DNA from: Candidatus Forterrea multitransposorum CG_2015-17_Forterrea_25_41 | GTDB taxonomy: Archaea; Iainarchaeota; Iainarchaeia; Iainarchaeales; CSSED10-239 | Assembly (NCBI GenBank): GCA_009392915.1 | Contig: CP045477.1 | Span: 224,001-288,000 of the forward strand | Length of the DNA stretch: 64,000 bases | Direction: 5' to 3' | Notes under the pieces: generated by a model | Seen by the model: only the letters and a program-made list of their open reading frames with translations | Database searches by the model: none | What the model was told of the DNA's origin: nothing | Part shown: in pieces, positions 12,301 to 60,484 of the stretch | Layout of the letters: each line of letters starts with the position of its first letter | Position numbering within the stretch: position 1 is the stretch's first letter | Translations under genes and position numbers: made by a program

Positions 12301-15300
12301 CTTTTATTTCTTTTTATGATGTTAGAGATACTTTTATTTCTTCTTTAAAACCAAGTAATTCAAATGGAAGGAATGGAAAATATACTATTACAAATAATTT
12401 TAATACTTCAACTGTTAAAATGGTAGTTGAAAGATATGGTTATCTTCCTTATGAAACTGAAATTTATATTATTGATAATACTTTATTAAATGCAATTCCT
12501 TCAGAAATAATTTTTAATTTAGGTCTTGACCAAACAGCATCAACTTCAAATTTTAGTTTAGAAAACTTAGGTAATTATCAAGCAACAAATGTAAGGTTTG
12601 GAGAACCTATTTGGATTGAAGGTAGTGCTGGTATTTATCTTGAAGGAAGAGGTAATCCAATAATTAATAAAAACTCAACTCAAAATTATCAATTGTTACT
12701 TACAACAGAAAATGATGTTGAACTTAAAACAGCATATGCACATCTTCCAGTATATGCATCTGTAGGTCCTAGAGAAGTTACAAAAATATTAAATGTTAGA
12801 ATAAATAAAGGTTTAATGTTAAATGAATGTGTTGAAATTACTCCTTCTGAAGTTTCTTCTTTTGTTGGACTAAATGTTTCTTCAAATTATGCAGATCCTT
12901 TTAATACTCCTTTTGCAGATTATGATTATACTTCAAATACTTCAAATAATCCTATGCTTGCACCTTCTCAAAGTTATTCTAATTATGAAGAATATTTAAA
13001 TTCAAGTGGATATAACATTACTGATTCAACAGATAATGGTTATACTTACACAGATTCTAAAAATTATACTTATCATGCAACTTCTCCTGCTCTTAATTCT
13101 CAAATTACTGAAAACACAACTTATTTTACAATTAAAAATAATTGTTCTCAAGCTATAACTTTTAATCCTCAAGCAGTTTTAACTTCTTCATCATCAAATA
13201 ATAATTTAGAAGTTTCTCTTGCAAACATAACTGTTCTTCCAGGAGAAGAAAAAGTTTATGATGTTATTTTAAAAAATTCATCTGAACTTAAAAGAAAAAC
13301 AACATATACCTATAATGTTTTATGGCATAATAATTATTATTCAATAGCTCCTTCAGTTTTAAATGTTGATCTTTTAGATTTAAGTAGAGCTTTATGGGTT
13401 ATGCCACAACAAATAAATATTCCAATCTCTCAAGTACATCCTCAACAAGCTGCTGAAAATTATACTAGATTTTTTATTAAAAATATAGGTGCTGTTCCAA
13501 TAACTGATATACAAATAAGTCAGTATCCAAAAATGGTGTCTTCTAATATTAAAATAACTGAATATCCAAGACAAGTATCTGTTTTAGAACCAGGAAAAAC
13601 AATTCCTGTTGATTTAAAATTTTCAGTAAATATTAATAAATCTACATTAGATAATGCCTTTATACAAGTAACTGGTAAAGCTGTTGGTATTAGTGAACCA
13701 ATTACTTCAACAACACAATTAGTGTTTTCAATTTCTTCTCCAAATTGCTTAAAAGTAAGTAATAAAAATATTAATTTTGATTTAGAAGTTGGGGAAACAA
13801 GAGCAAGAAATATTACAATTACAAATCAATGTTCTGAACCTGTTACAATAGTTGGAATTGATAAAAAACAACAAGGATATTATCAAGCATATGGGGATAA
13901 TTCTTTTAGAATAACTCCTGCTTCTGGTAATCCAATAATTCCTGTTAACATGTCAAATTCTTATAGAATAGAGTTTACTGCAAATTCTTTAGGTGGTTCT
14001 CCAAAAACACCAATGATACTTCAAGGTAGATTAATGAATTCAGGTAATCCTGTAACTTCAGAAGAGGTTTTAGTTTCAATAACTATAGATGATATAATGG
14101 TTGGAGAAGAAGCTGAAAGAAATATTTCTATTTTATCTTCTCTTCCTTCTTGTGAAGATCCACAAAATATTAATTCATATAATAGACCATTAATTTCAAT
14201 TAAAGATTGTTCTGAAACTTCAGGATATTGTGATGGAGAATCTTCAGCTGAATTAATTTTAAAAAAAGTAAATGAACTTCAAAATGAAATTAAACAATTT
14301 TCTGCACAAACACAATCAAAAGTAATTGATACTGGTTGTACTCTTCAAGATGCATATAGTGGTTTTTGTAAAATATCTGAACTTGGTGGAGGAATTGATC
14401 CTGTTGAGTTTTCTTTCTTTATGCAAAATGATAATGTTACACCTGATTTAATTAAATCTATTTTAACAAAATCAAATTATTCTTTTAAAAATTATTTTGT
14501 TGAAACAAATATTTTTAATAAAGAAATTAAAACTATAAATCAATATTCTTCTTATGGGGTATATGCTGGTGGAAATAAAATATTTGTATCTCCTCACCTA
14601 TCAGGTTGTGGAAAATATACAGTAGAGATTGATGGTTATGTTGCTGCAAGTCCAGATTATATTTATCCTGAAAGAGCATATTATTATATTAATGTTGTAG
14701 AAAAAGATACTAACACTATTCATTGTGAGAAAAATATTGTAAATTATTTAAATTATCTTCCATGGGATCTTTCTTTTAATAAAAACCAAAGAGCAGGAAC
14801 TTGGCTTACTTTATTTACTGGTGATGAAAATTTATCAAAAGCTTTAATTAAAAGTGTGGGTAAGTTTAAGTCAGATGAAATTGATTTAAGATATGTTTAT
14901 AATAAAGATGTTTTATCTACAAGAAATAGTACTTTAAATGTTTCAACTGGAGAGATTTCTGAAAATAAAGAAGCTCTTGCAAAAATTTCTTTTAATGATA
15001 CTTCTTTAAGAAAAAGCTCTTCTCCAGAACAAATAGATATTACTTTAAATTCTCTTTATAATTCTCCTGAAGGTAAAACTTCTGAGTATGCTGTTAAAGA
15101 TTTTTCAAAAGTAATTTCTTCAATGATTTCAGATAATGATTATTCTGCAAAAGTTTGTATTTCTGAAGATAAAACATATATGCTTGTTTTAGATGTTATT
15201 TCAGCAGGAGATTTAACTTTTGTTGATAAAGAAGTAAGTCTTCCTTTAAAGGATGGAGCTTCATGTTCTTTATTAAAAGTTAAATCATCAGTTCCTGAAA

Positions 15301-26296: not shown

Positions 26297-29200
26297 ATGG
26301 GACTTAAAAAGTTATACTATAATTTAGAAGATAAATATTACAGTTTTGTTGAAAGAACAGGACTTTATAAGGTTACTGATAAAATAGATAAGGTTATGCC
26401 TTCTTTTATTTTATTTATTCTTTTAATTGTAATATTAATATCTGGACTTGTCTTTTTACTACTTCCTTCTTCTCAAGTAAAAGACGGTGTTGATATTCAG
26501 TTTGAAGTGATTGATGCTGAGTCTGGTGCTCTTCTAGAGGATGTAACTTTAATGCTTACAACAAGTAAAGATATTTCTTCTATAACAACTTCTTCTGAAG
26601 GACTTACAGATTATATTAAAATTCCTAAAAATACCTCTTATCAAATAGATATTGTTGAAGATTCTTATGAAAATTTCAATGATATTTTTTCAACAAAAGA
26701 GTCTTCTGAAACTATAACTATAGCTTTAGAACCTTCTGGTGTTGAACCATTAACTGTTTCATATTCTTTTGATGTTGTTGATTCTAAAACTACTTTAATT
26801 GTAAATTCTACTGGTGCAATTTCTTTTAAATGTATGAACGGATCTTTAGCACCTAATCCAGTTAGAGTTTTAAATGGTAATGTTTCAGTTGAGGCATCTC
26901 CTGAATGTAATCTTGCAATTGATTCAATTTCATTTAATGGTTATTTATCAAAAGATAATATTCCAATAAATGCAATGACTGGAACAATTTCTTTAGAACC
27001 AACAGAAATTAATTTCCAAGATGATACTTATAAAGTTGTAATAAATGTTAAAAATTCATCTAATGAAGCTTTATCAAATATTAAGGTAACTTTTACAAAT
27101 GATTATGGTATAATTGATTCTAAAACAACTTCAAGTAATGGAAATGTAACTTTTGAAGATTTAGATTCTGGAGAATATATTGTAAATTTTTCTGATCAAA
27201 GAGCAACTCCTATATACAGTACTCTTTCAAGAACATATTATATTTCATCTGATATTACAAAATCAGAAACTTTATCTTCTGATGTTTCTGGATATATTTT
27301 TGTAAGAATAATTGGTGAAAATTCAGGTGTTTTAGAAGGAGCTGAAGTAAATTTAAAAACTTCAGAAAATAATACTATTGAAACTAAATTATCTGATGTT
27401 GATGGTGAAGTAATTTTTACAGTTTCTGAAATTAAAGATTATAATGTAGTTGTTGATGCTGAAGGTTATTTAATAACTAGAAAACTTGTTGAAGCAAAAG
27501 AAGTAATGCCAACAAACCCTATTGTTATTCCTTTACCTTTAATAACACCTGCAACTTTAGCTTCTTTAAAGGTACAAGTTACAACTTGGGAAGGAAAGCC
27601 TTTTAAGTTTGCAAAAGTTGTTTTGTATGATGCAGAAACTGGTTTTTTAACAGACTATAAACCAGTTTTAACAAACTATGATGGAAATGCTACAATAAAT
27701 ATTACTTCTGGAAAATATATTGCAAAAGCTATTAAAGGAAGTGTTACTGGTGAGTCATCAGAGTTTGAGTTTAATGTTAAATATCCTGAACTTTCTGGTA
27801 CTGTAACTATTCCAATGGGAATTAGTGAAGGTGTATTGAATGTTTCAGTTGTTGATAATGATGGTAATCCTGTTCCATATGCCATAATAGATTTATATGA
27901 TAGATATAGTTACTATAATTTCACACCAGCAGTTCCTTTAAAAAAGACAACTACAGATTCACAAGGAAATATTGAAATGGTTGTGGATGCTGATATTGAA
28001 TATTATGTTGTTGCAACTGATTTAGATGATGTTTATGGAAAAACACAATCTAGATTTGTTTATGTTGGTGCAGATTCTCAAGAGTCTCTAGAAGTTACTC
28101 TTTATCCAAGAAATAGTTCTACAACAAAACCAAGAATGGTATTTAATGGAATATATAAAGATGACTTAAAAGTTGAAGATAACTTAAAGGCTGGAGAAGA
28201 TTACAAAATCAGATATAATCTTTTAGTTCCTCAAAATAGAACTGGAGATGATGTTTTTGAAGAAATTGGTTTAATGTTAAGAACTGGTTCAACTTCAATG
28301 ATTGAAAATGATTCTTTATTTATTAAATATCTAGATGTTCCATATTTAGATAGTATACAAAAATATACACAATTTAATCTTAATGCACCTCATGAAAATG
28401 AAGGTTATTATGATGAAGATAGTTTAACTGAAGGAAACTTTAAATGGGCAAAAGCAACATTAAAAGAAGGTCCTATTAATTATAATGGTTCTTTTGGTTT
28501 CTATAATGCTTATGAAATTGAAGCAATAATTTCTGTTAAAGACACAGCTGTCTTTGGAGAAGAACTTAAAATATTTAGTTTAGGTTATGGTCTTAATGAA
28601 GATGATGAATATGAAACATATAATTCATATTTAGGACCTAATGAAGAAATTGAATATTATGATGTTTATGATCAAATAACATTTGGTGTTGGAAATGAAC
28701 TTTTCTGTTCTGATGAGTTTTGTTTCTCTTCAACAATTGTTGATGTTTCAGAAGACTTAAGATATGATGTTACAAATAATTTTGCAGCTATGCCAAATAA
28801 AGATTATAAGTATAGTTTTACATTAATTAATAATTCTCTTGAAACTAAATATTTATCTTCTAGATTTATTTTAGAAAATATTGATGAAGGTTTAGATTTT
28901 AAAAATATAAAAATCTATAAACCAGATGGAGAAGTATACACCCAAACAAATACTAATGAAAATGAATTTGATATACCAATAACTTCTTTAGTTTCAAAAC
29001 AAAAAGTAACTGGAGAAATTATTTTTATGCCTAAACTTAAAGGTACAAGAGAGTTATCTATTAAATTTATTTCTGATCAAAAAATAAAATTCATTAATCA
29101 ATTATTCATAGATGTTCTTTCAGATAAAACATTTGAAGTAGAGATTGAACCTTCAATAATTCCTTCTGCAAAGAGTTTCTCACTTGTGATTAATGCTGTT

Positions 29201-31900
29201 GATTCTAAAACAAAAATACCTGTTGAAAATAGAACAATAACAATTAAAGATAAATTTAAAGATACTATTAAAGGACCAATTTCAGTATCTGATTCAGTTG
29301 ATGAAATTGAAATAGGTAATATTCCTGCTCAAGGACCTGGAGATACAATCTATGTTTATATAACAGCTCCTGAGTATGAAACTGTTGTTGAAGAATTAAA
29401 AGCAACTGATAAATTATATAATATTATTCCAAGAAATTTAGCATATTCATTAAATATATTTGATGAAAAACAAAAAACTGAAAACTTTACAATTAATAAT
29501 TTATCTCCAATTGATTTAACTATTGATGAAATGGTTGTAAAAGGAAATGGTCTTGAAGTTGTTGATCTTCACAGAATAAATAATACTTTACTTAATAGTG
29601 TTGGTGTTATTATAAAAGGATTTGATTCAGTTTCAGATCTGCCAGATAACACAGACGCTTCAAAAGAGATTCCATTAACTATTAGTTTAAATCCAAGAGC
29701 TGAAACAATTAGAGAAGTTGTAGATTTATCTTCAACACTTCATATTGTTCTTTCAAATGGAGAAAATCAATGGAAGAGTGAGATTCCAATTAAAATAAAT
29801 ATTGGCTTTGATGGTATGATTGATAATTCTAATTGTTTAACTTTATCTCAAGATCAATGGAATGCTGTTGCTTTAAATAAAGCTGTTGATACAACATTTA
29901 TGGTTTCAAATAAATGTTCTGTAAATGGAACAAATATGCCTCTTTCAAATGGTCTTGAAGCAAGAGTATTATTTGAATCTAATCCTCAAGGTAAATTTAT
30001 TATAAGTCTTGATAATAGATCAATTGAACTTACTCATGGTAACTATAGAAGATTACTTGATACTTTTGATAGAGATAGATCACTTCCAGTAATTTTAAAA
30101 TATGAACCTGCTGGAAGAATGAAAGGAACTGTTAAAGGTACAATTGAGTTTAGATCTGTAAATAACACTGGAAGTGGAGAACAAGAATTAGTTTCATCAA
30201 TTGCATTTGAAATTGATGTTACAAATTTAAAAGATTGTGTTGTGTTTTCAAAGAGTTCTTTAAATGTTGGACAAGTTGATGACGAATTCACAATTGAAAA
30301 TGTTGCTTGTCCTGCAGACATGACTTACAGACTTTCATGTGACAATTGTCAAGGTTTAGTTGTTGAACCAAGAAATAATATTGATGTTCCTGCAAGTGGA
30401 AGTAGTGAAAATATTGTTGTAAGAAACATGGGAGCTACACCTGGTGCTTATGTTTTAAATGTATTTTCAAGTATGAAAGAATTTAGAGGTTCTGAAGAAC
30501 TTATAAAAAGAATAAAAGTATATGTAAGACCAACAGATTATTGTGTTGATCTTGAAAGATATGAGTTTGATCTTTATAGATCTGAATATTCTGAAAGTAC
30601 TGGTCTTGAACTTAATGCAACTTCATATGATACAACAAATTTAATTAATCTTTGTTATGGTCAAGAAGTTGAAGGTACTTTTAGTGTTAAAGAAGATGCT
30701 AAATGGAAGATGGCTTTAACTTCATTTTTAAGAGAAGGTTTGTATACTGGTGGTATTTCTGCTATCTTGCAAGGAAAGTTATTTGCATCAGCTGAAGATA
30801 AGGCAAATAAATTACTTGAAAGTGATGCTATAAAGAATAGCACTGATGAAAATGTAAAATCAGCTGCTGCTGCATTAGCTGCTGCTGTTGCTACTGGTAA
30901 TAAGAAAGATATTAAAGAGAAGACAACTGCTCTTGAGAATGCTGTGAATGATTCTGTTAATCCAACTTCTTCAGAAGCTACACCTGGGGAAACTTCTACT
31001 GGAAATCAAACTTCTTTGATTGATAAATCTAACCAATTAGTTACTGATGTTGAAAAATATTTAGAAGATTACAAGGTTTCTGGAAAAAATATTTATCAAG
31101 AAGTTGGTGACACAAATATAAAAAAATTAATCAATGATTTAAAAGATGCAATAAAAACTAATAAAATTGAAAAAATAGAACCTGCTTATAATGAGCTAAA
31201 ATATGTTTTTGAAGAATTTAAAAATACAAATTCTCCTGTTACTACTCCATCTGCTGGAAGTACTCCACCCGCTCAAACTACTTCCCCCGCTCAAACTTCT
31301 GATACTGATAGTTTAACTGTAAATGATGATGTTGATAATACTTGGAAAAATAGTGTTAATTTAGATATATATAGAGAGTTTGTTTTAGATAATCCTAATA
31401 AACTTGATTTTGAATCTAAATCCTATAAAGCAGAAGATTATTCTAATTGGGATACTTTCAGAGAAAAATACGATAAAAGTGTTATTACACTTAATAAAAA
31501 AATAGAAGATGAATTATTAGTGTCTGCAACAAGTCAAAATGATTTTTCTGAAAAAATAAGAACTGCAAAAGATGAATGGAAAAAAAATGTTAGAATTTTA
31601 ATTGAAGATTTAAAAGCAAAGGAGGAGACATTAACTCCTAATTTAGATGTTCAACAACAAAGACTTCAAATTGCAAGTCAAGCACAAACAGGTGCTAGTT
31701 GTAGTAAAGACGAATTAATCCCTGGAACACAAGAAAATTTATTTAATATTATTGAACCTAATGATAATGGATTTGTATATGTTTGTACAGGAAATGGTCA
31801 TTATAGAGCTTGTGATTTAAATACAAATAAATGGACTCCAATAGCAACTAATTACCCAATTTATGATCATGCAGTAGATACATGTATTGAAATAAATTAA
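26297..31900 (+). CDS. Giant (1867 aa) signal-anchored surface protein, paralog; its C-terminal tail is homologous to that of the 2671-aa protein
   Basis: The N-terminus is LYYNLEDKYYSFVERTGLYKVTDKIDKVMPSFILFILLIVILISGLVFLLL. It has beta-sandwich repeats, the shared CSDEFCFSSTIVDVSEDLRYD module, and an Ala-rich/PT-rich tail (SAAAALAAAVATG...SPVTTPSAGSTPPAQTTSPAQTS). Confidence 0.8.
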   Translation: MGLKKLYYNLEDKYYSFVERTGLYKVTDKIDKVMPSFILFILLIVILISGLVFLLLPSSQVKDGVDIQFEVIDAESGALLEDVTLMLTTSKDISSITTSSEGLTDYIKIPKNTSYQIDIVEDSYENFNDIFSTKESSETITIALEPSGVEPLTVSYSFDVVDSKTTLIVNSTGAISFKCMNGSLAPNPVRVLNGNVSVEASPECNLAIDSISFNGYLSKDNIPINAMTGTISLEPTEINFQDDTYKVVINVKNSSNEALSNIKVTFTNDYGIIDSKTTSSNGNVTFEDLDSGEYIVNFSDQRATPIYSTLSRTYYISSDITKSETLSSDVSGYIFVRIIGENSGVLEGAEVNLKTSENNTIETKLSDVDGEVIFTVSEIKDYNVVVDAEGYLITRKLVEAKEVMPTNPIVIPLPLITPATLASLKVQVTTWEGKPFKFAKVVLYDAETGFLTDYKPVLTNYDGNATINITSGKYIAKAIKGSVTGESSEFEFNVKYPELSGTVTIPMGISEGVLNVSVVDNDGNPVPYAIIDLYDRYSYYNFTPAVPLKKTTTDSQGNIEMVVDADIEYYVVATDLDDVYGKTQSRFVYVGADSQESLEVTLYPRNSSTTKPRMVFNGIYKDDLKVEDNLKAGEDYKIRYNLLVPQNRTGDDVFEEIGLMLRTGSTSMIENDSLFIKYLDVPYLDSIQKYTQFNLNAPHENEGYYDEDSLTEGNFKWAKATLKEGPINYNGSFGFYNAYEIEAIISVKDTAVFGEELKIFSLGYGLNEDDEYETYNSYLGPNEEIEYYDVYDQITFGVGNELFCSDEFCFSSTIVDVSEDLRYDVTNNFAAMPNKDYKYSFTLINNSLETKYLSSRFILENIDEGLDFKNIKIYKPDGEVYTQTNTNENEFDIPITSLVSKQKVTGEIIFMPKLKGTRELSIKFISDQKIKFINQLFIDVLSDKTFEVEIEPSIIPSAKSFSLVINAVDSKTKIPVENRTITIKDKFKDTIKGPISVSDSVDEIEIGNIPAQGPGDTIYVYITAPEYETVVEELKATDKLYNIIPRNLAYSLNIFDEKQKTENFTINNLSPIDLTIDEMVVKGNGLEVVDLHRINNTLLNSVGVIIKGFDSVSDLPDNTDASKEIPLTISLNPRAETIREVVDLSSTLHIVLSNGENQWKSEIPIKINIGFDGMIDNSNCLTLSQDQWNAVALNKAVDTTFMVSNKCSVNGTNMPLSNGLEARVLFESNPQGKFIISLDNRSIELTHGNYRRLLDTFDRDRSLPVILKYEPAGRMKGTVKGTIEFRSVNNTGSGEQELVSSIAFEIDVTNLKDCVVFSKSSLNVGQVDDEFTIENVACPADMTYRLSCDNCQGLVVEPRNNIDVPASGSSENIVVRNMGATPGAYVLNVFSSMKEFRGSEELIKRIKVYVRPTDYCVDLERYEFDLYRSEYSESTGLELNATSYDTTNLINLCYGQEVEGTFSVKEDAKWKMALTSFLREGLYTGGISAILQGKLFASAEDKANKLLESDAIKNSTDENVKSAAAALAAAVATGNKKDIKEKTTALENAVNDSVNPTSSEATPGETSTGNQTSLIDKSNQLVTDVEKYLEDYKVSGKNIYQEVGDTNIKKLINDLKDAIKTNKIEKIEPAYNELKYVFEEFKNTNSPVTTPSAGSTPPAQTTSPAQTSDTDSLTVNDDVDNTWKNSVNLDIYREFVLDNPNKLDFESKSYKAEDYSNWDTFREKYDKSVITLNKKIEDELLVSATSQNDFSEKIRTAKDEWKKNVRILIEDLKAKEETLTPNLDVQQQRLQIASQAQTGASCSKDELIPGTQENLFNIIEPNDNGFVYVCTGNGHYRACDLNTNKWTPIATNYPIYDHAVDTCIEIN

Positions 31901-31937: not shown

Positions 31938-34832
31938 ATGGAAAAAATAAAAAAAAATATTAAATTTTTAGGAATTTTTTTAATAATGGCGCTTATGCTT
32001 TCATTTGTAAGCATACCTGTTTCAGCTGAGTTAGGTGATGAAGCAAAAAGCCAAGTAGGAAATGTTTTAATTGAACAAGTATTTTTAGGTGGTGGAAAAC
32101 TTCTAAATAAAGTCTTTGGACTAAACCCAATAGTTCACGGTGTCTTAGCAGGTGGTTTTTCTGCAATAAATACTTTTTCTCAACTTTCAAAAGTAGAAAT
32201 TGATTTTTCCTTAGATAGAGATCAAGTAAACCTTTCTGAAGATAAAGAAGATTATTTTGAACCATATGATAATTACCTTTTAGATAATAAAATAGAACAA
32301 GATGTAACTTTAAAAGACAACATGCTTTTAACTGATAAAAATATCTTAGATGCACAATTTATTGAAACAAAAAATTTATCTGAAATTGATAATGGAAGTA
32401 ATTCTCCAAATTTTAGACTTGCAGATAAAACAAAACTTGTAAAAGTTTTAGATTCAAATAATCAAGCAGTATCTTTACAAAAAAGAGAAATATTATTTGA
32501 AGATACAAATAAAACAATTGAAAACGAATATGAATATAGAACCTTTGTAGTTAAATATCCTAAATCAACATATACAGGAAAAGTAGATTATGATCTTGGT
32601 TTTTCTGATCTTTTAGGATCATGGGCAAATCTTTTAGTTCCATTCTATAATGGTGCAAGTAATATTAAAATAAGTAAATTTTTAGATGGTTCTAATACAA
32701 AACTTATAGAAAAAATAAATGAAGAAAAAAAAGAAGAAATACTTTTAGAACCTTTCAAATTAATATTTAATTCTTATGTTAGAGATTCACTTGAAAATGT
32801 TGAAACAGACCAAGTTAACTGTGTTACTGAAGGTGGATTACTTTTAGGTCAAACAGGAACAGAAGCTCTTCCAAATATAGCTTTAGATTGGACTTATAAT
32901 TCTTCAAATGCACAAACAATTTCAGGTATGAATGTTTCAAGACTTGATTGGTGTGATGCTGATTTAACTGGTGAAGAAAACAAAAACTCAATCTTTTGTG
33001 ATTCAACACAATTCTCAATTGAACTTTTAAATAAACTTGAAAAAATTCAAAACTTTGTAAAAGATAATAAAGCTTCATTTACATGTCCAACACCAGGTGT
33101 TACTCAAAGCTTAATTTCAGAAAATAACAATATAGGAATAACACAATTAAATTCAAGTTATGATTCTTCAATAATTTCTGTTGAATATCTACTTGAAGGA
33201 ACAATGAATTTAGATGATTTTAATATTGTTCCAGAAACATTAGGAAGTTTAGCTCTTACTCTTCTTAAAGACGGAGTAGAGGAAGATAGTAAAATAATAG
33301 AGTTTACTTTAGAAGACTTTATTGAAAATAAATTCTCAGGAACAGAAGAATTTGATGTTGGTTTTATTTTTGATGATGAAACTAATTTTAAAATAACTGC
33401 AATTTTAACTTTATCAGATCCATATAGTTCAGTTGATTCAAAATTAGATAATCTTTTAGAAAATGAATTTACTCCAAATTCAGAAACTTGTGATTTAGAA
33501 AAAACATCTCAAAATATAAATCTTTTCTCTAAGAATAAGAAAATAGATACTTCATTAGTAGAGTTTAGATCTTATTTAATGAAAGATGGATATTCTAATG
33601 ACTTTAAATCAGACTTTGATAGATATTATAGACATACAATAACAGCAGCTCCAGATATCTATAAAGATTATTATTATAAATATTTTACAACAGATAATTT
33701 TACTTTCCAATCATCCTTTGATTCAGAACCTGGAAGATTAATGCTTCAAGGTCCTGGAAGATACAATGTTTTATTAAAAGTAACATTTGATGATGAATGG
33801 AATTTATTTGATAAAACAACAGATGAAGTTACAGGAAAAGTTGAAGTTATTTTAACAAGAGAAATTGCACCTGAAAGAGATTCTCCTCTTTACTATATGC
33901 CATTTAATGGTCTTGTTGGAATTGATTCTGAAAATGCAAGACAAGGTTATGGTGTTGACTTTACAGGAGATGTTGTAACAGTTTCAAAACTTCAAACTAA
34001 TGAATATTTAAGAACAGAGCCTTTTACACAATCTAATACAGTTAACACAGTTTCTGTAAAAGAGTATGGTAAAAATCCAACTGACTTTTCTTTCTTAAAT
34101 AATGGACAAACAAGAGGAATGCTTCTTAATATTAATTTATCAAGTACAAAAACAAATCCAGAGCTTGTCTTTGTTCCATCAAGAGCAACTCCTGTTGCTT
34201 TAAAAGTTTCAAATCAAAATAATGATGCTTATGCTTTCTATAAGCTTGATATAGGAGCTCCTCAAGCTCAAGGTGGAGAACCTGCATTAACTCCTGGTAG
34301 TTTAGTTCCATGGACAGGTGTTGGAAATTGTCTTGACTTTACAGGAATTTCAATTTTAGAAACTTATAAAGGTAGACCAGACATACATGCAATTTCTTCA
34401 AAACTTGCACCTTCAACAACAAGTGACACTGTTTCATATGGTGTTGAATGGGAAGGAAGAAATATTACTAGAAGAGGAGATGTATTCTTAAGAACAGTCT
34501 TTTACACACCAAGTAATTTTAAAACAGGTGATGGTTTAAGTGTACTTACTTTAGATTCATATGATGATGCAGCAGCTTTCTATACATTAGGTCAAGAGAA
34601 TGCAAGTTCTGTTGAGCTTAGAAATGTTTTAGGAAACAATGCAGATATTAAATATATTAGTGAAATCTTTTCACTTGTAAACGAAAAGAAAGCATGTATT
34701 GATTATACAGCTAATAATTTAAAAATTTCATATAATCCAATAGCCGTATCAGAACCATTATTTGGTGGAGATTTATCTTCAGATTCTCAAAATGCTTGGG
34801 TTGAAAGTAAAGGCGGATGTATAATAAATTAA
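31938..34832 (+). CDS. Secreted 964-aa protein; a stand-alone copy of the C-terminal module B found in the 2466- and 2147-aa giants
   Basis: It has a classical Sec signal peptide (MEKIKKNIKFLGIFLIMALMLSFVSIPVSA|ELG). It is collinear with the giants' C-termini: TGTEALPNIALDW, DWCDADLTGEENKNSIFCDSTQF, YYMPFNGLVG..RQGYGVDFTGD, WTGVGNCLDFTG, VFLRTVFYTP, ISEIFSLVNEKKACI. Confidence 0.75.
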   Translation: MEKIKKNIKFLGIFLIMALMLSFVSIPVSAELGDEAKSQVGNVLIEQVFLGGGKLLNKVFGLNPIVHGVLAGGFSAINTFSQLSKVEIDFSLDRDQVNLSEDKEDYFEPYDNYLLDNKIEQDVTLKDNMLLTDKNILDAQFIETKNLSEIDNGSNSPNFRLADKTKLVKVLDSNNQAVSLQKREILFEDTNKTIENEYEYRTFVVKYPKSTYTGKVDYDLGFSDLLGSWANLLVPFYNGASNIKISKFLDGSNTKLIEKINEEKKEEILLEPFKLIFNSYVRDSLENVETDQVNCVTEGGLLLGQTGTEALPNIALDWTYNSSNAQTISGMNVSRLDWCDADLTGEENKNSIFCDSTQFSIELLNKLEKIQNFVKDNKASFTCPTPGVTQSLISENNNIGITQLNSSYDSSIISVEYLLEGTMNLDDFNIVPETLGSLALTLLKDGVEEDSKIIEFTLEDFIENKFSGTEEFDVGFIFDDETNFKITAILTLSDPYSSVDSKLDNLLENEFTPNSETCDLEKTSQNINLFSKNKKIDTSLVEFRSYLMKDGYSNDFKSDFDRYYRHTITAAPDIYKDYYYKYFTTDNFTFQSSFDSEPGRLMLQGPGRYNVLLKVTFDDEWNLFDKTTDEVTGKVEVILTREIAPERDSPLYYMPFNGLVGIDSENARQGYGVDFTGDVVTVSKLQTNEYLRTEPFTQSNTVNTVSVKEYGKNPTDFSFLNNGQTRGMLLNINLSSTKTNPELVFVPSRATPVALKVSNQNNDAYAFYKLDIGAPQAQGGEPALTPGSLVPWTGVGNCLDFTGISILETYKGRPDIHAISSKLAPSTTSDTVSYGVEWEGRNITRRGDVFLRTVFYTPSNFKTGDGLSVLTLDSYDDAAAFYTLGQENASSVELRNVLGNNADIKYISEIFSLVNEKKACIDYTANNLKISYNPIAVSEPLFGGDLSSDSQNAWVESKGGCIIN

Positions 34833-34847
34833 AAGAGGGATTAATTA

Positions 34848-37800
34848 ATGTCATTTAAAGATGCTTGGCAAAATTTTCTAACAAAGATAGACAACAGAAT
34901 ACCAATTAAAAAGATAACAGGCCCACTTGATAAAAAAAATCCCTTAACTTCTTTTTTTATTTTTCTTTTAATAATTTTAGTTGTTTTATACTTAATCTTT
35001 GGATCAAGTATAACACTAAATAATCAAAAACTAACTGAAGTTACAATAAGACTTGCAGATTCAGATAATAATATTTTAGATAATTTTGATTTTAAGATTA
35101 GAAATATATCTGATGGAATAACAAATAGTTATGTTACAAACTCATCAGGTTCTTTAACTTTAGAACTAGATTTAAATAAAAAATATTTATTAATTATTGA
35201 TTCTCCTAATTATGAACTTTTAGAAGAAGAAATTAATTTATCTTTAGATTCTTTAAATTTTATAGTTACTGTTTTAGATACTCCAATTAATTATTTAAAA
35301 ACAGTTTACTTTGAAGATGCATTAACTAATAGCTTAATTGAAGATTCTTTAAATGTTACAATTAGATGTGATAATGGAGAAATAATTACTCCAAATACTA
35401 TTGATACTCAATCTGGAAGTGTAGAAATTAATGTTCCTTTAGAATGTGAAAATATTTATGCATCTGTAAGAGGAGATAGGTATATTGAAGAAAATCTAGA
35501 GATGCCTATTACAGAAAGTACTTTCAAGCTTGAATCTATAACTGAAATATTAGAGAGTGGAAGAGTTTCTATTTCAGTATTTTCTGGAGAAGATATTATT
35601 CAAGATTCAATAACTATTAAAATATTTTCAGTTGATGATTCAATAACTCCAATTAATACTACACAAACAACAAATGGAATTGGTTTTTTTAATTCAATAC
35701 CAGTTGGTGAATATATTGTTAAAGCAAGTGATGTTTCAAATAGATATCTTCAAAAACAAGAACAAGTTACAATAATTAAAAACTCACTTTCTGAAATTAC
35801 ATTTGATTTAATAGATACAGATACAGACTCTCCTATAATAATTGATCCTGATACAAATCAAGAAATTGTTATAAGAGAAGTTACTGTTTTTGTAAAAGAT
35901 AAGGATTCAGGAGAAATTATAGATTCTTCTTTTGATCCTAGTGTTACTTTACTTTTAGATGGTAATGAAAATATTGAACAAAGAAACCTTAATGAAGGTT
36001 TTATTTTTAATATTTCAGAGGATAAATCATATTCTCTTAAAGCAACAGCAGAAGGTTATATTCCTGGAGAAATTATTCCAATAATTTCTGGTAAAAATAC
36101 ATATATTTTTAATTTAGAAAAAATAACAATAAGTAATGTTTCAAACCTTAATATTACTGTTCAAGATGAAGACTTAAAACCAATTGTTGGTTTAAAATCT
36201 TGGATATATGATAAAGATGGACAATATATAGATCCTAGATTTGATTTTTCAACATCTGATGAAAATGGAAATATTGTTTTTGAAAATATTCCTGATCTTA
36301 ATTTTACAATAAAAGTTAAAAATAGTTTTATTGAAGAGACTTCTTCAATGTATCATAATTCTCCACCAGAAGATACTAACATAACATTACCTGTAGAGAT
36401 TGGTACTGGTACAGTTAATTTAACTGTTAAAAATAAATTAAATGATATTGTTTCAAATGCACAAGTTACTTTTTATTCTGAAAGTTTAGAAGTTTTAGGT
36501 AGTTCTTTTGCATCTTCAAATGGAACTTTAGAAAATGATCTTAAAGCTGATAAAAGAATTTTTATAAAAATAGAAGCTGATGGTTATCTTCCTTACTTTA
36601 CAGAGCTTTTTAGAATTTATAAAAATAAAACAGTTACAAAAGAAATTATTCTTGAAAGAGAAAATTTATCAGATGATGTTTCTGTTGAGTTTTTAGGACT
36701 TTATAATTCTTTAGATACTGAAGTTGAATCTTTAAAAAACAATGAAGTATTTTATTTTAAGTTTAAAGCAATCATGCCTGTTTCAAGTCAACATTTTAAT
36801 TTTGTATTTAGAGCAGGTTCTTTTACTTCAGTAACAGAAGATATTGTTTTTATAATGCCACAAAATACTTCTTTAGGTATTCCTGTTTATTATGAAAATG
36901 AGCCATTTAATGAATCAGGGAATTATTTAGAATCTAAGTTAGTTGATATTGAATTCTTAGGATATCCTGCTTCAGTTCATGAAATTACAATTCCTATAAG
37001 AATTAAAAATGCAGCTATTAATGAAAGAGTTTCTTTCTTTTATGATTCTTCAATAAATAATATTGACTTTATGTCAAATAATTTTAATCAATTACAATAT
37101 TTTATAGAAGCTACAAGTCTTTGTGGAGAAGATTTTTGTTTTTCAGGACAATATGTTGATGTTTCTCAAGACTTAAGATATGATATTTCTTCAAATAATT
37201 TAATTTCAACAAATATTCATTCAGATTATATTTTAGAATATCAAATTACAAATTCTTCTTCAAATAGTTTTGAAGATGTAAGACTTTCTACAAGAAATTT
37301 AAATAATGATGATAATCCAGTAGCTATGATTAACATTAATAGTTATTCAATTTCTGGAGAAGCAACTTCTGTTGGTCAAACAATTGAAGGAGAAAATAAT
37401 TTTAATATTCCTTTTACTGGTGATGAAATTAATTTAGAAAAAATTAATCCTTTTTCAAGTATTAATTATACTTTAAATGTAACTCCTTTAAATCTTGGAC
37501 AATCTAAACTTACAAATAGAATTATTTCTCTTCAAGAAGAAATCTATTCTCTTCCTATAAACTTTTCAGTTTCAGAACTTGAAACTATGGAAATTGATTA
37601 TGAACCTAAAAATATTGTTCCTGGACTTCCTTTTGATTTATTAGTAACTGTAAAAGATACTCAAGGAGAATATTTAGAAGGAGTAAATATTAATATTTTA
37701 CAAAAAGTTAGAAATGAGTATATTACTGTTTCAACAGGAAAAACAACTGATCCTCAAGGAAATGTAATAATAACTTTACCATCTTTAAGACCAGGAGAGA

Positions 37801-40800
37801 CTTTTGAAATACAAGCTATAAAGTCAAAATATTTTTCTCAGAATGTTTCTTTTACAATCGGAACTGATATTTTAGATGTTTATTCTCAAGAGCAAATATT
37901 ATCTTCTGAAAGTCCACTTGAAGTATTTATTCATAAAACAAATATTAATGGTGAAACTTATTCTTTAACTTTAAAAAACAAAACAAACTATGCTTTAAAA
38001 ATTAATCAATTTAATACTGAAGATTTTTCTTTTAATAAATCTTATTTACTTAATTTAGAGCAAACTGTTAATTATCTTAATAATCAAATAACTTCTCAAG
38101 CAGAAGGTTTTGTAATTCCTGCAAATGAATCTAAAGAAATTGTAATTAAGTTTGCCCCTTCAGATTCTGCAAGAACTCATCCTGTTTCAGAAGATATTTT
38201 AGGTGCAATTACAGGAAATTATTCTTTAAATAATTATGATTATCGTTTTACAATTCCTGTTAAAGCAAAATTTTCTGTTGGAAGTGGTGTTTTATTTGAT
38301 GATTGTTTAGTTGTAACTCAAAGTCCAGGAGAATGGAATACTGTTGTTTCTACAAGTACTCAAACAACTTCTTTTACAATAAAGAATACTTGTCTTTCAA
38401 AAGAAGGAGAAGTCCCAATACCTATTAAAAATGTACAAGCAAAGATATCTTCTCAAGCAGATAGATATGGTGTTTATTTCTTAAACCTTATAGGCCCATC
38501 TTCTTCAAATCAAATACAGTTGTCTGAAAATTACTATAGAGTTGTAATTGATCAAATGGCTCCTGAAGAAGAATATAGAGTTGATTTAACATTTAATACT
38601 AATGGTACAAGATTTGCAGATGTTAAAACAAATATACATCTTAATGCTCAAGTAGAAACTGAAGATGGTTTATCTTTTGTAAATAAAGAACCTAAAGATA
38701 TTTTCTTAAAAACAAATATTTCAATAATGAATCTTAATGATTGTTTTTCATATATTGATCAAAATGGAAAAGTAATTAATTCAGGTGGTCTTTATACTTT
38801 AGAAGGTATTGAAGAAAATGAATTAACTATTAGAAACAATTGTCAAGGAAAAGCTACTTTTAAAATGAATCTTTGTGATGCTTATGATTTAGGTTGTAAT
38901 GATTTAATTATTACAAATACAGATGAAGAAAATAATATTTTAAGATTTTCACTTAACGATTCTGAAAAAACAGTATATATTAAAAAAGATTCAACAAAAG
39001 CACCTGGTGCTTATATTCTTAATAACAGAGTCTCTGTTATAAATAATTTTGAAAGAGAACTTGCATCTTCTTTTGCTCTTTTAAAAATAAATGCAAAAGA
39101 TCCTAATGGTTTATGGATGGAAGATCCTTTTATAGAGATTAATGAAGATAAAGTTTCTGAGATTAAAAGATTATATAATAATAATTTAGAAAAGACTCCT
39201 TGGGATTATGCAAGTTATTATCAAGGAGAAGAAGGTTTTGGAAAATTTATAACAAATATTTATTATACAGGAAATACTTGGAAAAAATCTTTTAATCAAC
39301 ATTGGAGTAGATGTATAGCTGGAGATGATACTTGTTTATTTAACGGGGATAATTCTTTACTTTCAATGAGATTTTTACCAGAAAATCAATTAAGTAATGT
39401 TGGTGCAGAAGGATTAAGTGCAGGTGGTGCAATTGGGATAGGAATTGGTACTGCTGCAATTGTTTCATTAGTTTTAATTATGGCAAAAGTTGCTGTATTA
39501 GGAAGTCTTTTAGGACCTGTCGGTTGGATAGTTGCTGGACTTTCAATTGTTGTTGCATCAATAGCACCATCTTTCTTTTCAGATTATGATGTAGATGTGC
39601 AACCAAGGTTTTTGGATGTTTCTGAAAATAATACTATTGATAATTTAGTTGCTTTAAAAGAAATATCTGTAGATGATTTAAGTGATCAAAAAGAATTAAT
39701 TAATGTATTTGATATTACTGGTGCAAGATATTTTAAATATTTTAATAATGTTATTTTTGCACATGGAAAACTTGCTTCTAAAAAAGAAATTAAAAGTGTA
39801 CTTCCAAAATGTAATGGTATAAATAATTTAGTGCCTGTTGATCAATTTTTAAAAGTATATAATAAACCTCCATTTTGTGATGAAATAACTATAGAAGAAA
39901 CTGAAGATTCTTATATTTATAAAACAAGTTGTAATGGACAAAAATTAAATAGACTTGAATTAAATTTATTCTATAGTGCTTATTCAATATGTAAAAGTGA
40001 TGAAACATATTGGCCAGAACAAGCAGGTATAAAACCTTTACAGTTTAATTTAACTGATGAAATATATAATTTATTAGATAATGATTCTAAAAAATATTAT
40101 TTTAAAAAATATGAATTTAATCCAACTTTAGATGATTCAAATAGCACACAAGATTTAGCTTTTGTAGATTCAGATAGTGTAGGAAATTATAGATTTGGTT
40201 TCTTTTTAACAAAACCTGAAGAAACACCAAATTATGATCTTTCATTACAAGAATGTGTAACTGATACTGGAAGAACTGGAAAAACAGGAGAAGGTGCAGT
40301 TCCAAATATTTCTCTAAATTGGAATTGGGCTGAAACTGATTGTGCACAAACATATTGTGATGCAACTCAATTAACTCAAGATGTTTTAGATAGAATTAAT
40401 GATGCTGAAAAATTAATTTCATCAAATGTTGTTCAATGTCCTATAAGTAATCAAGAACTTTATGACCAAGCATTAAATGGTTCTTATAAAGTAACTGCAG
40501 AACCATCTGATGTTATTAATGAAATACCTGTTGGAAAAGTAGGTATTAATTCTGTAAAATTAGATTCTCAAAATAATAAATTAGCAATAAAAGTAGTTTT
40601 AGAAAACAGATCTGATACACCATCTTCAGGAACTATTGTTATTAGTCTTGATGATAAACAATTAGAATCTATAAAATACAGAGATGTAGCTTCAGGAGAA
40701 TATATTGAAGAAAATATAGATTATCCTGGATCTTATTCAAAAAGTATAACTGTTCCTTCTGGTATTGATAATACTAATGAAATAATTTTTGTTTATAAAG

Positions 40801-42248
40801 AAGGAATTTATGGTGAAGACTTACCTTTAACTATTGATTATTTAGCAACAAATTCACATAGTAATATGTTTGCTTCAAGTGTTGATTTATCAAGTTATCA
40901 AGCAGAAGAAATCAATGAGTGTCAAGTTCCAGCAACAACTGCAAGATTTGATGGAACAAGTTATTTAGATATGTGGCTTAATAAAGAAATGTATCCTGAT
41001 AATGTTGTAGGTTCTGGTTGGTCTCAAACTGATATTACAAAACTTAAAGAACTTTTAGAGTTTGATGCATACTTAATAACAGATAATTATAATAGTAATT
41101 TTAAAAATGACTTTGATATGGCCTTCGGTGGTCTTGCTTCAAAAGAAGATGGAGCTGGAGCTGGAAATTATGCTATAATGTCTTCTCCAACTGTGTTTTC
41201 AAATGGTTATCTTTCTAAATTATTTAAAAACAATTTAATATTTACAAAAGAATATTCAAGTGAAGAAAATGTAAATATTAATGTTCCAGGAAAATATAAA
41301 ATTAAAATTGATTTATTATTTGAAAATGGTTCTTGGAATTTTTATGAAGGTGATGATCTAGATGTAAATGCATTTGTAACTTTTAGATTTATTTCTTCTC
41401 CAGAAACAGATAGTGTTTTCTATAGAATGCCATTTAATGGATTTGTTGGAAAAACAACTTCTGGATATGATAGACAAGGTTATGGTGTTTCTTACTTAGG
41501 AGATTCTATAAGAGTTGATAATGAAAATGTAATTACAGAAGAAGATTATGGTTCAAATTCATTAAGAACAATAACTGTTACAAAATCAAATGATCTTTCA
41601 AGAATTAATTCAAATATTGAAACAAGAGGTAATCTATTAAGTATTAAATATAATCAAACAGACAATGTAGATTTAATATTTACTCCAAGCACACCAATTC
41701 CTTTACTTATGAGTATTGATAAGAGTAATAATAGCCCTCTTAATGTGATTTATAGACTTAAAGATAAGAGTGGTAATGCTATTAGTTCAACTTCTTTATT
41801 AAGATGGACAGGTGTTGGTTCTGGTTGTGACTTTTCTGGTAATTCTATATATAATATGACTTATTATGATAGATATGCTGGAGATGAAGGTGCAGTTTCT
41901 GCATATGTAGTTGATTGGCCACAAGTCTTAAGAACAGGAAAAATATATTTAAGAACTGTTTTCTATAGTCCTGAAAGAGAGTCTTATTCTTTAGAGAATA
42001 GATCTGATCAAGGTGTTATGGTTAAGTTTTCAAAGAATGGAACTAATTATTCTTCTTCAGTTTCTTTAGGTGAAGATGATTTAACAGGCATTAAATCTAT
42101 TTCAGATGTATTTAATTTAATTAAAGATAATAAAGTATGTGTTGTAAATTCATATGATGGAAAAACTTCTGATTTCTTTTATAATCCTTCAGAAATTTTT
42201 ACAGAGAAGTTTACAAAACAACCTTCTGATTCTTTAGAATGTAGTTAA
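34848..42248 (+). CDS. Giant (2466 aa) signal-anchored surface protein, paralog; it has an internal hydrophobic hairpin and C-terminal module B
   Basis: The N-terminus WQNFLTKIDNRIPIKKITGPLDKKNPLTSFFIFLLIILVVLYLIF is followed by beta-sandwich repeats and the shared CGEDFCFSGQYVDVSQDLRYD module. An internal segment reads GGAIGIGIGTAAIVSLVLIMAKVAVLGSLLGPVGWIVAGLSIVVASIAP. The C-terminus (FYRMPFNGFVG..RQGYGVSYLGD, WTGVGSGCDFSG, IYLRTVFYSP) is homologous to 31938..34832. Confidence 0.8.
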   Translation: MSFKDAWQNFLTKIDNRIPIKKITGPLDKKNPLTSFFIFLLIILVVLYLIFGSSITLNNQKLTEVTIRLADSDNNILDNFDFKIRNISDGITNSYVTNSSGSLTLELDLNKKYLLIIDSPNYELLEEEINLSLDSLNFIVTVLDTPINYLKTVYFEDALTNSLIEDSLNVTIRCDNGEIITPNTIDTQSGSVEINVPLECENIYASVRGDRYIEENLEMPITESTFKLESITEILESGRVSISVFSGEDIIQDSITIKIFSVDDSITPINTTQTTNGIGFFNSIPVGEYIVKASDVSNRYLQKQEQVTIIKNSLSEITFDLIDTDTDSPIIIDPDTNQEIVIREVTVFVKDKDSGEIIDSSFDPSVTLLLDGNENIEQRNLNEGFIFNISEDKSYSLKATAEGYIPGEIIPIISGKNTYIFNLEKITISNVSNLNITVQDEDLKPIVGLKSWIYDKDGQYIDPRFDFSTSDENGNIVFENIPDLNFTIKVKNSFIEETSSMYHNSPPEDTNITLPVEIGTGTVNLTVKNKLNDIVSNAQVTFYSESLEVLGSSFASSNGTLENDLKADKRIFIKIEADGYLPYFTELFRIYKNKTVTKEIILERENLSDDVSVEFLGLYNSLDTEVESLKNNEVFYFKFKAIMPVSSQHFNFVFRAGSFTSVTEDIVFIMPQNTSLGIPVYYENEPFNESGNYLESKLVDIEFLGYPASVHEITIPIRIKNAAINERVSFFYDSSINNIDFMSNNFNQLQYFIEATSLCGEDFCFSGQYVDVSQDLRYDISSNNLISTNIHSDYILEYQITNSSSNSFEDVRLSTRNLNNDDNPVAMININSYSISGEATSVGQTIEGENNFNIPFTGDEINLEKINPFSSINYTLNVTPLNLGQSKLTNRIISLQEEIYSLPINFSVSELETMEIDYEPKNIVPGLPFDLLVTVKDTQGEYLEGVNINILQKVRNEYITVSTGKTTDPQGNVIITLPSLRPGETFEIQAIKSKYFSQNVSFTIGTDILDVYSQEQILSSESPLEVFIHKTNINGETYSLTLKNKTNYALKINQFNTEDFSFNKSYLLNLEQTVNYLNNQITSQAEGFVIPANESKEIVIKFAPSDSARTHPVSEDILGAITGNYSLNNYDYRFTIPVKAKFSVGSGVLFDDCLVVTQSPGEWNTVVSTSTQTTSFTIKNTCLSKEGEVPIPIKNVQAKISSQADRYGVYFLNLIGPSSSNQIQLSENYYRVVIDQMAPEEEYRVDLTFNTNGTRFADVKTNIHLNAQVETEDGLSFVNKEPKDIFLKTNISIMNLNDCFSYIDQNGKVINSGGLYTLEGIEENELTIRNNCQGKATFKMNLCDAYDLGCNDLIITNTDEENNILRFSLNDSEKTVYIKKDSTKAPGAYILNNRVSVINNFERELASSFALLKINAKDPNGLWMEDPFIEINEDKVSEIKRLYNNNLEKTPWDYASYYQGEEGFGKFITNIYYTGNTWKKSFNQHWSRCIAGDDTCLFNGDNSLLSMRFLPENQLSNVGAEGLSAGGAIGIGIGTAAIVSLVLIMAKVAVLGSLLGPVGWIVAGLSIVVASIAPSFFSDYDVDVQPRFLDVSENNTIDNLVALKEISVDDLSDQKELINVFDITGARYFKYFNNVIFAHGKLASKKEIKSVLPKCNGINNLVPVDQFLKVYNKPPFCDEITIEETEDSYIYKTSCNGQKLNRLELNLFYSAYSICKSDETYWPEQAGIKPLQFNLTDEIYNLLDNDSKKYYFKKYEFNPTLDDSNSTQDLAFVDSDSVGNYRFGFFLTKPEETPNYDLSLQECVTDTGRTGKTGEGAVPNISLNWNWAETDCAQTYCDATQLTQDVLDRINDAEKLISSNVVQCPISNQELYDQALNGSYKVTAEPSDVINEIPVGKVGINSVKLDSQNNKLAIKVVLENRSDTPSSGTIVISLDDKQLESIKYRDVASGEYIEENIDYPGSYSKSITVPSGIDNTNEIIFVYKEGIYGEDLPLTIDYLATNSHSNMFASSVDLSSYQAEEINECQVPATTARFDGTSYLDMWLNKEMYPDNVVGSGWSQTDITKLKELLEFDAYLITDNYNSNFKNDFDMAFGGLASKEDGAGAGNYAIMSSPTVFSNGYLSKLFKNNLIFTKEYSSEENVNINVPGKYKIKIDLLFENGSWNFYEGDDLDVNAFVTFRFISSPETDSVFYRMPFNGFVGKTTSGYDRQGYGVSYLGDSIRVDNENVITEEDYGSNSLRTITVTKSNDLSRINSNIETRGNLLSIKYNQTDNVDLIFTPSTPIPLLMSIDKSNNSPLNVIYRLKDKSGNAISSTSLLRWTGVGSGCDFSGNSIYNMTYYDRYAGDEGAVSAYVVDWPQVLRTGKIYLRTVFYSPERESYSLENRSDQGVMVKFSKNGTNYSSSVSLGEDDLTGIKSISDVFNLIKDNKVCVVNSYDGKTSDFFYNPSEIFTEKFTKQPSDSLECS

Positions 42249-60453: not shown

Positions 60454-60484
60454 CTCTTTTACTAAACTTCTTTAATAGATTATT

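Follow-up and report, generated by a model that had tools for sequence, protein, structure and literature searches.

A conserved hydrophobic helical hairpin lies in the middle of a giant surface protein of 2466 amino acids (aa) encoded by Candidatus Forterrea multitransposorum, an archaeon of the Iainarchaeota, a DPANN phylum. The gene was found in a stretch of 64,000 nucleotides (nt) of contig CP045477.1 (assembly GCA_009392915.1, positions 224,001 to 288,000), here called the window, in whose own numbering all nucleotide coordinates are given. Judged by sequence comparison, the hairpin marks the seam between two evolutionary modules that also exist as separate neighbouring genes, a point missed by the preliminary description of this DNA, and on balance the segment is probably a double-pass helical hairpin that staples the module junction to the cell's own cytoplasmic membrane. 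The feature is real, conserved and unusual and its function is testable; that it enters the membrane of another cell is a reading that we regard as improbable. The parts of the giant discussed below are as follows.

34848..42248, plus strand: gene for the 2466-aa giant that carries the hairpin, from the list of open reading frames (ORFs) and its translation
34848..35000, plus strand: conserved cytosolic motif (aa 1–32) and I/L/F-rich signal-anchor helix (aa 33–51), with a Kyte–Doolittle (KD19) peak of 3.03 and a Hessa-type sum of -5.6
35316..39023, plus strand: N-module, aa 157–1392, paralogous to the upstream 1867-aa gene by blastp
39210..40010, plus strand: strain-variable cassette 1, comprising the hairpin and ~150 aa after it, without blastn alignment to L005, the locus of a near-identical strain
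39417..39503, plus strand: helix 1 region, aa 1524–1552, Gly/Ala-rich with a lone Lys at 1547, from apolar runs and AlphaFold
39504..39515, plus strand: turn, aa 1553–1556 (S-L-L-G), before the conserved Pro of G-P-x-G-W, at the helix break predicted by AlphaFold
39516..39578, plus strand: helix 2, aa 1557–1577, ending in the conserved A-P-x-F and followed by S-D-Y-D, from AlphaFold and a local hidden Markov model (HMM)
39582..42245, plus strand: C-module, aa 1579–2466, predicted all-beta and exported, homologous to the stand-alone 964-aa gene
40251..40370, plus strand: most conserved motif of the family, aa 1802–1841, from invariant alignment columns
40552..40863, plus strand: strain-variable cassette 2, approximately aa 1874–2014, a gap in the blastn alignment to L005

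The hydrophobic segment of the giant protein

The 61-aa peptide that first drew attention is the exact translation of nt 39396–39578 (aa 1517–1577 of ORF 34848..42248), within a few bases of the position of 39400–39590 originally assigned to it. Only two KD19 peaks occur in the protein besides the anchor at aa 33–51 (3.03), namely aa 1537–1555 (2.43) and aa 1554–1572 (2.11), ~1470 aa beyond that anchor (about 1500 aa in the preliminary description). Stretches free of D/E/K/R/H/N/Q extend over 25 residues (aa 1522–1546) and 31 residues (aa 1548–1578), separated by K1547 alone, the next longest such run outside the anchor being 15 residues. A run of at least 31 was obtained in none of 2000 shuffles of the sequence and a run of at least 25 in 30 of them. 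Kyte–Doolittle height alone was not significant in this I/L/F-rich protein (shuffled maxima had a mean of 2.0, and 642 of 2000 shuffles reached 2.1 or more) and was dropped as proof; because shuffles attain such peaks so often, we used run length and conservation instead. Taken with the helix-turn-helix predicted by AlphaFold, the two runs and peaks bear out the earlier claim of two consecutive hydrophobic helices in mid-protein.

On a simplified Hessa-type scale with approximate values, the two hairpin helices sum to -0.8 and +2.0, inside the range of the transmembrane helices of an M48 peptidase from the window (-4.3 to +2.4), far from the N-terminal anchor (-5.6), and with the best segment elsewhere in the protein at +8.8. 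Their Eisenberg mean hydrophobicity and moment (<H>/moment of 0.83/0.03 and 0.70/0.21) fall in the transmembrane corner of the plot. Across 18 orthologs, Gly and Ala represent 38% of the hairpin (17% G and 21% A), 6% of the N-terminal anchor and 10% of the rest of the protein, while Ile, Leu and Phe together represent 26% of the hairpin and 67% of the anchor; small-xxx-small motifs reach a density of 0.20 in the former vs 0.02 in the latter. The small-residue composition is apparently held against mutational bias, since the hairpin stretch has a guanine-plus-cytosine (GC) content of 38% within a gene of 26%. Alignment columns aa 1526–1577 are free of charge apart from an occasional K or E at 1546–1548, where indels cluster as well.

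Cysteines occur in close pairs on either side of the hairpin (e.g. 1489/1496 and 1655/1677), and 28 glycosylation sequons precede it and 14 follow it, a count that is weak evidence in an Asn-rich proteome. Cleavage by signal peptidase after helix 2 was judged unlikely by eye: the 'A-S-I-A|P' site would have Pro at +1, and A-P-x-F has no conserved small residue at -1 in the orthologs. Rfam and tRNA scans returned nothing at the hairpin region, and the opposite strand there holds no ORF of at least 100 aa. An assembly or frameshift artefact was ruled out, as the identical protein occurs in 82 blocks of the assembly collection, including a contig of 663,621 bp, and orthologs of the same length exist.

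Conservation among relatives

A word-indexed search with the hairpin region alone returned one fragment, and a profile of the C half was needed to collect relatives. This profile recovered 24 proteins, of which 15 are full-length orthologs (2426–2525 aa in length, present across many lineages) with 34–53% identity over the C half; one protein, P0005, is a near-identical strain variant (67%). An apolar stretch of 37–94 residues stands at the same place in all 18 long sequences that span the site and in three fragments truncated at contig ends; in the orthologs it is flanked by a 'TPWDY' motif and 'NVFDITGARY', and it is never shorter than two spans. Identity within the stretch is low. What is kept is G-P-x-G-W, with which helix 2 begins, A-P-x-F, with which it ends, and the acidic/aromatic exit S-D-Y-D, the most conserved hairpin columns being G1556, P1557, G1559 and W1560. 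A local HMM of helix 2 found 24 proteins (E ≤ 3e-3), always with the match 279–305 aa upstream of YCDATQ, the motif that served as positional landmark for hairpin distances.

An exhaustive profile search extended the C-module family to 695 cluster representatives (445 with E ≤ 1e-30), comprising giants of ~2300–2600 aa and stand-alone proteins of ~1000 aa. Among 105 more distant fused giants, a KD19 peak of at least 1.6 was detected 188–361 aa (median 250) upstream of YCDATQ in 60, and anywhere else in only seven. Distant, GC-richer relatives show this plan more clearly, with a Gly/Ala-rich helix 1, then a very hydrophobic helix 2 of unambiguous transmembrane character (KD reaching 3.5) and then an acidic 'DDPC/EDPC' flank. 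The most conserved part of the whole 695-cluster family is the motif at aa 1802–1841 (C-x-T-D-x-G-x-x-G-x-T-G-x-x-A-x-P-x5-W-x-W...Y-C-D-A-T-Q), with G375, P380, W386, C393, C398 and D399 as invariant columns of alignment A4; it is a candidate functional site of the C-module, itself without a known family match. Pfam searches of the giant gave no model for the C-module and matched only Ig-like (immunoglobulin-like), CarboxypepD_reg, SpaA and Big_1 domains, all in the N half. Our literature searches found no description of the two-module family, the internal hairpin or the module seam.

Two modules, fused and split

Comparison of the window's own proteins by blastp aligned aa 157–1392 of the giant with aa 162–1388 of the 1867-aa ORF (E ~1e-36) and aa 1803–2447 with aa 295–934 of the 964-aa ORF (E ~1e-38). 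These two ORFs are neighbours, in that order, directly upstream of the giant, which is thus the fused counterpart of a split gene pair, with the hairpin located between the two homologous parts.

26297..31900, plus strand: stand-alone N-module gene, 1867 aa, without a C-terminal hydrophobic helix, identified by paralogy
31938..34832, plus strand: stand-alone C-module gene, 964 aa, with a signal peptide at aa 1–30, identified by paralogy

The 964-aa protein begins with a classical-looking signal peptide (...SIPVSA/ELG, cleavage at ...VSA/E), and a strongly hydrophobic, signal-peptide-like N-terminus is found in 13 of 25 stand-alone C-modules (~1000 aa), this neighbouring protein being of that kind. 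At aa ~39–82, aligning with the position of the hairpin, it has an amphipathic, Gly-rich helix-turn-helix (hydrophobic moment 0.46 for helix 1'; <H> 0.63 for helix 2'), and the helices of stand-alone modules at this position are amphipathic (moment 0.39–0.46). In the 1867-aa protein, 'GLYTGGISAIL' (aa 1482–1492) looks, by eye only, like the beginning of helix 1 as found in two orthologs, P0001 and P0010. The 2147-aa paralog contains both modules, joined by a junction that is not apolar. The helix 2 HMM recovered the close subfamily only and gave no support for homology between the hairpin and the amphipathic, Gly-rich helices of relatives that are stand-alone or lack a hairpin; the link between them is one of position and of similarity seen by eye.

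Strain-variable cassettes

The DNA of the target locus is 95–98% identical to L005 over 27 kb, and the giant is 94–100% identical to P0005, except for aa 1451–1723 (cassette 1, which includes the hairpin) and aa 1874–2014 (cassette 2), where protein identity falls to 16–46% and 16–40% respectively. The corresponding DNA has no blastn alignment (window 39210–40010 with L005 14363–15205; window 40552–40863 with L005 15750–16079), and the flanks of cassette 1 are 97.6% and 85.6–96.9% identical to L005. The pattern looks like allelic cassette replacement. The apolar hairpin is kept in both cassette types, which argues for a function and against a neutral scar, and its neighbourhood appears to undergo allelic replacement, as is common at surfaces that contact a partner. 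A third stretch unaligned to L005 (L005 6187–7017) lies at window 31231–31890, at the C-terminal end of ORF 26297..31900, whose L005 paralog is 1926 aa in length vs 1867; by this alignment, the C-end of the stand-alone N-module seems to be strain-variable as well.

Predicted structure

Modelling of aa 1440–2466 with AlphaFold (25 sequences; mean predicted local distance difference test score, pLDDT, 76) gave a confidently all-beta C-module (pLDDT ~80–90), whereas aa 1520–1572 scored below 50 and helix was predicted only at aa 1559–1575, leading into a beta strand. With a trimmed, better-anchored alignment of aa 1451–1850, helices were placed at 1520–1527, 1538–1552 and 1557–1576 (pLDDT 29–49), with a break at 1553–1556 (S-L-L-G), ahead of the conserved Pro. 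Over both runs the helix-turn-helix has a pLDDT of 29–58 and is not packed against the well-predicted beta domains; a beta strand (aa 1579–1589) begins two residues past helix 2. A buried hydrophobic core of a globular domain was rejected, both runs placing the low-confidence helix-turn-helix outside the beta domains. In these models the segment is helical and unpacked, the behaviour that would be expected of a lipid-embedded or partner-dependent element.

Among the matches listed, the fold searches gave only generic beta-sandwiches, and a fusogen, colicin or toxin fold was rejected on these grounds. No fusogen fold (class I, II or III, or archaeal fusexins) was present among the 50 best Foldseek matches in the PDB (46 with E ≤ 0.001) or among the 50 best BFVD matches listed (80 with E ≤ 0.001), and the top fold matches had a TM of at most 0.11. 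The segment being neither a buried core nor absent from orthologs, the original finding stands on both counts, that of conservation (all 18 long orthologs and three fragments) and that of AlphaFold.

A probable hairpin in the cell's own membrane

Both hydrophobic segments are long enough to cross a bilayer (at least about 18 aa), with runs of 25 and 31 residues, and AlphaFold places helices at 1538–1552 and 1557–1576. The N-terminal flank appears to be of the exported kind, with a signal-anchor upstream and Ig-like domains, and the C-terminal flank likewise, being homologous to proteins with signal peptides. As both flanks are of this kind and Cys pairs occur on both sides, the number of membrane crossings has to be even or zero. 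The preliminary description had called both flanks extracellular, rich in sequons and containing Cys; their exported character and the Cys pairs are borne out, while the sequon counts say little. Of its two proposals for the hairpin, the second anchor or re-entrant dip is the better supported, by helices of transmembrane length, an almost charge-free turn, flanks of the exported kind, a conserved position and the lack of burial in AlphaFold. For the other, a fusion- or insertion-peptide-like element, the Gly/Ala-rich apolar peptide is indeed there, and an activation site, heptad repeats, a C-terminal anchor and a fusogen fold were not found.

In a double-pass arrangement, the N-terminal signal-anchor would start Sec export of the ~1470-aa N-module until the Gly/Ala-rich helix 1 (aa ~1524–1552) reached the translocon and acted as a stop-transfer sequence. 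After a tight, nearly charge-free turn, helix 2 (aa 1557–1577, G-P-x-G-W...A-P-x-F) would serve as an uncleaved internal signal-anchor and restart export, now of the ~890-aa C-module, a job done in the split homologs by a cleavable signal peptide. Small-xxx-small packing may stabilize the pairing of the two helices. The N-module would then be a giant extracellular loop pinned at both ends and the C-module a free C-terminal ectodomain rooted at the membrane.

Several observations weigh against this arrangement. Helix 1 is only marginally hydrophobic in many orthologs (Hessa-type sums up to +4.9), and in ortholog P0006 no KD19 window reaches 1.6. No clear hydrophobic peak is seen in 45 of the 105 fused relatives, so a transmembrane hairpin is not needed at the module junction. 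The composition is very unlike that of the protein's own anchor and resembles membrane-active peptides, and for a stalk of the adhesin type it would be unusual to have a loop of ~1470 aa fixed at its two ends. Nor is there a consistent positive charge in the turn (some orthologs have one K, some one E and many none), and the positive-inside rule therefore lends no support; this weakens the hairpin-anchor case and does no more than that, since tight hairpins can do without such charges.

Other explanations were weighed against the same data. In trans insertion, which we consider unlikely, the hairpin would pass its own translocon, sit ~1470 aa out on the Ig-like stalk and enter the membrane of a host or neighbour from outside. 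Once there, it would tether or perforate the membrane or assist the merger of the two bilayers, in the manner of a fusion peptide or the hairpin of a glycine-zipper toxin. Its Gly/Ala-rich, marginally hydrophobic composition, unlike the I/L/F anchor of the giant, would fit such a role, and with a charge-free turn no charges would have to be moved across the bilayer on entry from outside. The hairpin also lies within a strain-variable cassette, as a partner-contact surface would, and the equivalent site in stand-alone C-modules is the amphipathic Gly-rich helix-turn-helix close to the mature N-terminus. Gly-zipper segments of one cell that depolarize the membrane of another provide a precedent (EsxX, PMC12744356), and the molecular basis of DPANN-host membrane contact is unresolved (PMC11329633). 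However, a new N-terminus made by cleavage is not supported, the 12 residues before the hairpin of the target containing neither Lys nor Arg, and heptad repeats and a sheath of amphipathic helices are both lacking, with a beta strand two residues after helix 2. No Pfam glycine-zipper or toxin family matched at E ≤ 0.01, helix 2 of distant relatives is so hydrophobic (KD 2.8–3.5) that its escape from the translocon is implausible, and no host is known for the organism. In its fullest form, the hairpin would be the working end of a DPANN cell-contact machine, with an N-terminally anchored stalk that carries it into the host membrane, where it tethers, perforates or starts a merger, with a cassette that tunes host specificity and with the stand-alone C-module homologs as a secreted version of the device; we hold this scenario to be improbable.

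The helices may instead be buried in a protein-protein interface, e.g. a helical bundle of several copies or of the giants of the cluster, forming an assembly or oligomerization core outside the membrane. A small-xxx-small density as high as this is usual where helices pack tightly, an element that folds only in the oligomer should have a low pLDDT as a monomer, the anchored surface proteins encoded by eight or nine co-oriented genes could assemble into a single apparatus, and relatives with an amphipathic instead of an apolar version exist. At least 50 consecutive residues without a charged or amide side chain (and versions of up to 94 aa) would nevertheless be extreme for a soluble interface, the segment would have to clear the Sec channel without integration and no coiled-coil periodicity was seen, so that we rate this as rather improbable. 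Very unlikely, to our mind, is an evolutionary scar left by fusion of the C-terminus of one gene with the signal peptide of another, with no role except that of keeping the C-module outside. All close orthologs retain the hairpin, as do the two alleles of the replaced cassette, its Gly and Ala cost GC-rich codons (38% GC locally vs 26%), which argues for selection, and G-P-x-G-W and A-P-x-F are conserved; moreover, in stand-alone modules the Gly-rich helix pair is distinct from, and additional to, a signal peptide, and helix 2 is therefore not just a former signal peptide. A scar would account for the location of the hairpin, which falls precisely where homology to the adjacent 1867-aa gene gives way to homology to the 964-aa gene, for the signal peptides of stand-alone C-modules and for the many fused relatives that manage without a hydrophobic hairpin.

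The gene cluster and its surroundings

The window has a GC content of 25.8% and contains housekeeping genes of archaeal type, namely NurA and the prolyl- (ProRS, with a ProRS-C_1 domain), histidyl- (HisRS) and alanyl-tRNA (AlaRS) synthetases. Over ~42 kb (nt 9363–51577) run nine co-oriented, densely spaced ORFs of at least 100 aa, every one with an N-terminal hydrophobic helix, and five of them encode proteins of 1867–2671 aa. This run fills about two-thirds of the window, the largest contig of the genome being 664 kb, and its gene order is the same in the near-identical strain.

The five giants have a common cytosolic motif directly N-terminal of the anchor helix (window 34848–34943, 26297–26410, 19298–19430, 9363–9550 and 45560–45690), roughly (F/Y)Y..(L)EDKYY..(V/L)..(I/V)P(L/I).K(I/L)(T/I)D(K/P)(I/L)(D/E)K..(P)(S/T)F, which may serve as a signal for targeting or assembly particular to this family; the 2147-aa protein has a Lys-rich extension of ~150 aa ahead of it. 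The 2671-aa giant (ORF 9363..17378), which shows no blastp similarity to the other giants, has a weak internal hydrophobic segment, VGAIVDCLGFSCLLPSLNIFA, at aa 2190–2210 (window 15930–15992; KD19 1.64–1.68), ~460 aa from its C-terminus. At window 42681–45110, an 809-aa ORF with 22 Cys and an N-terminal hydrophobic helix has no Pfam match; it starts at TTG, and the gene calls on public contigs give 805 aa, with a start 12 nt further downstream. Directly before it lies a conserved 120-aa ORF (42322–42684), which has an N-terminal helix too.

Each of two tRNA genes adjoins the gene of its cognate synthetase (window 53200–54770 and 60380–62990): the gene for histidyl-tRNA synthetase has tRNA-His(GTG) 180 nt upstream, and that for prolyl-tRNA synthetase has tRNA-Pro(TGG) ~1.1 kb upstream, an unannotated 320-aa ORF separating the latter two.

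Comparison with known systems

The class I viral fusion peptides include those of HIV gp41, paramyxovirus F and influenza HA2. Like these, the hairpin is an apolar, Gly/Ala-rich stretch between exported domains of a large surface molecule (cf. PMC8634857), and the influenza peptide also forms a helical hairpin. In contrast to them, it lacks an activating cleavage site as well as a heptad-repeat coiled coil and a C-terminal anchor, and it measures 50–90 aa as against ~20; the fold searches showed no similarity to any viral glycoprotein. As regards cleavage, the upstream flank FLPENQLSNVGAEG contains neither Lys nor Arg, and no basic motif was seen upstream of the hairpin, where aa 1517–1525 in a 13-sequence alignment are 8–38% charged, most commonly with D and E and with basic residues not counted apart. 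A heptad-repeat coiled coil and a C-terminal transmembrane anchor were not found in the giant, in which the only strong anchor is N-terminal and the C-module is predicted to be all-beta. With the hairpins of colicins, Bcl-2 proteins and the T-domain of diphtheria toxin, the segment shares a charge-free helical hairpin that could in principle insert from the aqueous side (cf. PMC12925061). Those, however, are wrapped in six to eight amphipathic helices; the hairpin of the giant has coil and beta strand on its flanks, and the fold searches retrieved nothing of that kind. Glycine-zipper toxins such as EsxX, an LXG toxin of the type VII secretion system (PMC12744356), likewise have apolar helices rich in small residues on a large secreted or surface protein engaged in cell-cell encounters, but these are C-terminal and accompanied by immunity genes, unlike the internal hairpin described here, for which no immunity-like gene was identified. 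The giant did not match the Pfam Gly-zipper_* or Rick_17kDa_Anti families at E ≤ 0.01, and the hairpin would work like a zipper-type packing motif without being a member of such a family. As defining features of each were looked for and are lacking, we do not count the hairpin among the fusion peptides, the colicin-type hairpins or the glycine-zipper toxins.

No sequence relationship was detected to the SPEARE proteins of Nanohaloarchaeum antarcticus or to Giant1-5 of Apilactobacillus. The cluster nevertheless resembles these systems (for Giant1-5, PMC12863079) in its consecutive genes for multi-thousand-residue, Ig-like surface proteins within a small genome. According to reviews of cryo-electron tomography work, the basis on which 'cytoplasmic bridges' form is poorly understood (PMC11329633). 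The present analysis defines a large unannotated family of two-module giant surface proteins (the 695 representatives) and pinpoints a short, conserved and tractable element at their seam. If the hairpin is a second anchor only, it shows how such giants are threaded and laid out on the envelope, with the C-module close to the membrane; if it inserts in trans, DPANN contact proteins would have their first candidate for a membrane-active element. The fused, fused-without-hairpin and split forms together represent a natural experiment on the gain and loss of topology signals when secreted proteins are fused.

Insertion of a 'helical hairpin' by Sec/YidC is familiar from M13 procoat and from the stop-transfer plus signal-anchor pairs of polytopic proteins. 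The hairpin of the giant differs from such anchors in its position, 1500 aa along a surface protein of 2466 aa and with a huge ectodomain on either side, in consisting of 38% Gly and Ala, in a turn without the usual positive charges and in helices that are much less hydrophobic than the protein's own anchor. It shares with double-spanning hairpin anchors two apolar helices of ~20–30 aa, a short turn, both ends on the trans side and a second helix that would be the signal for the downstream domain, and of all the systems considered, it is to these anchors that its working principle appears closest.

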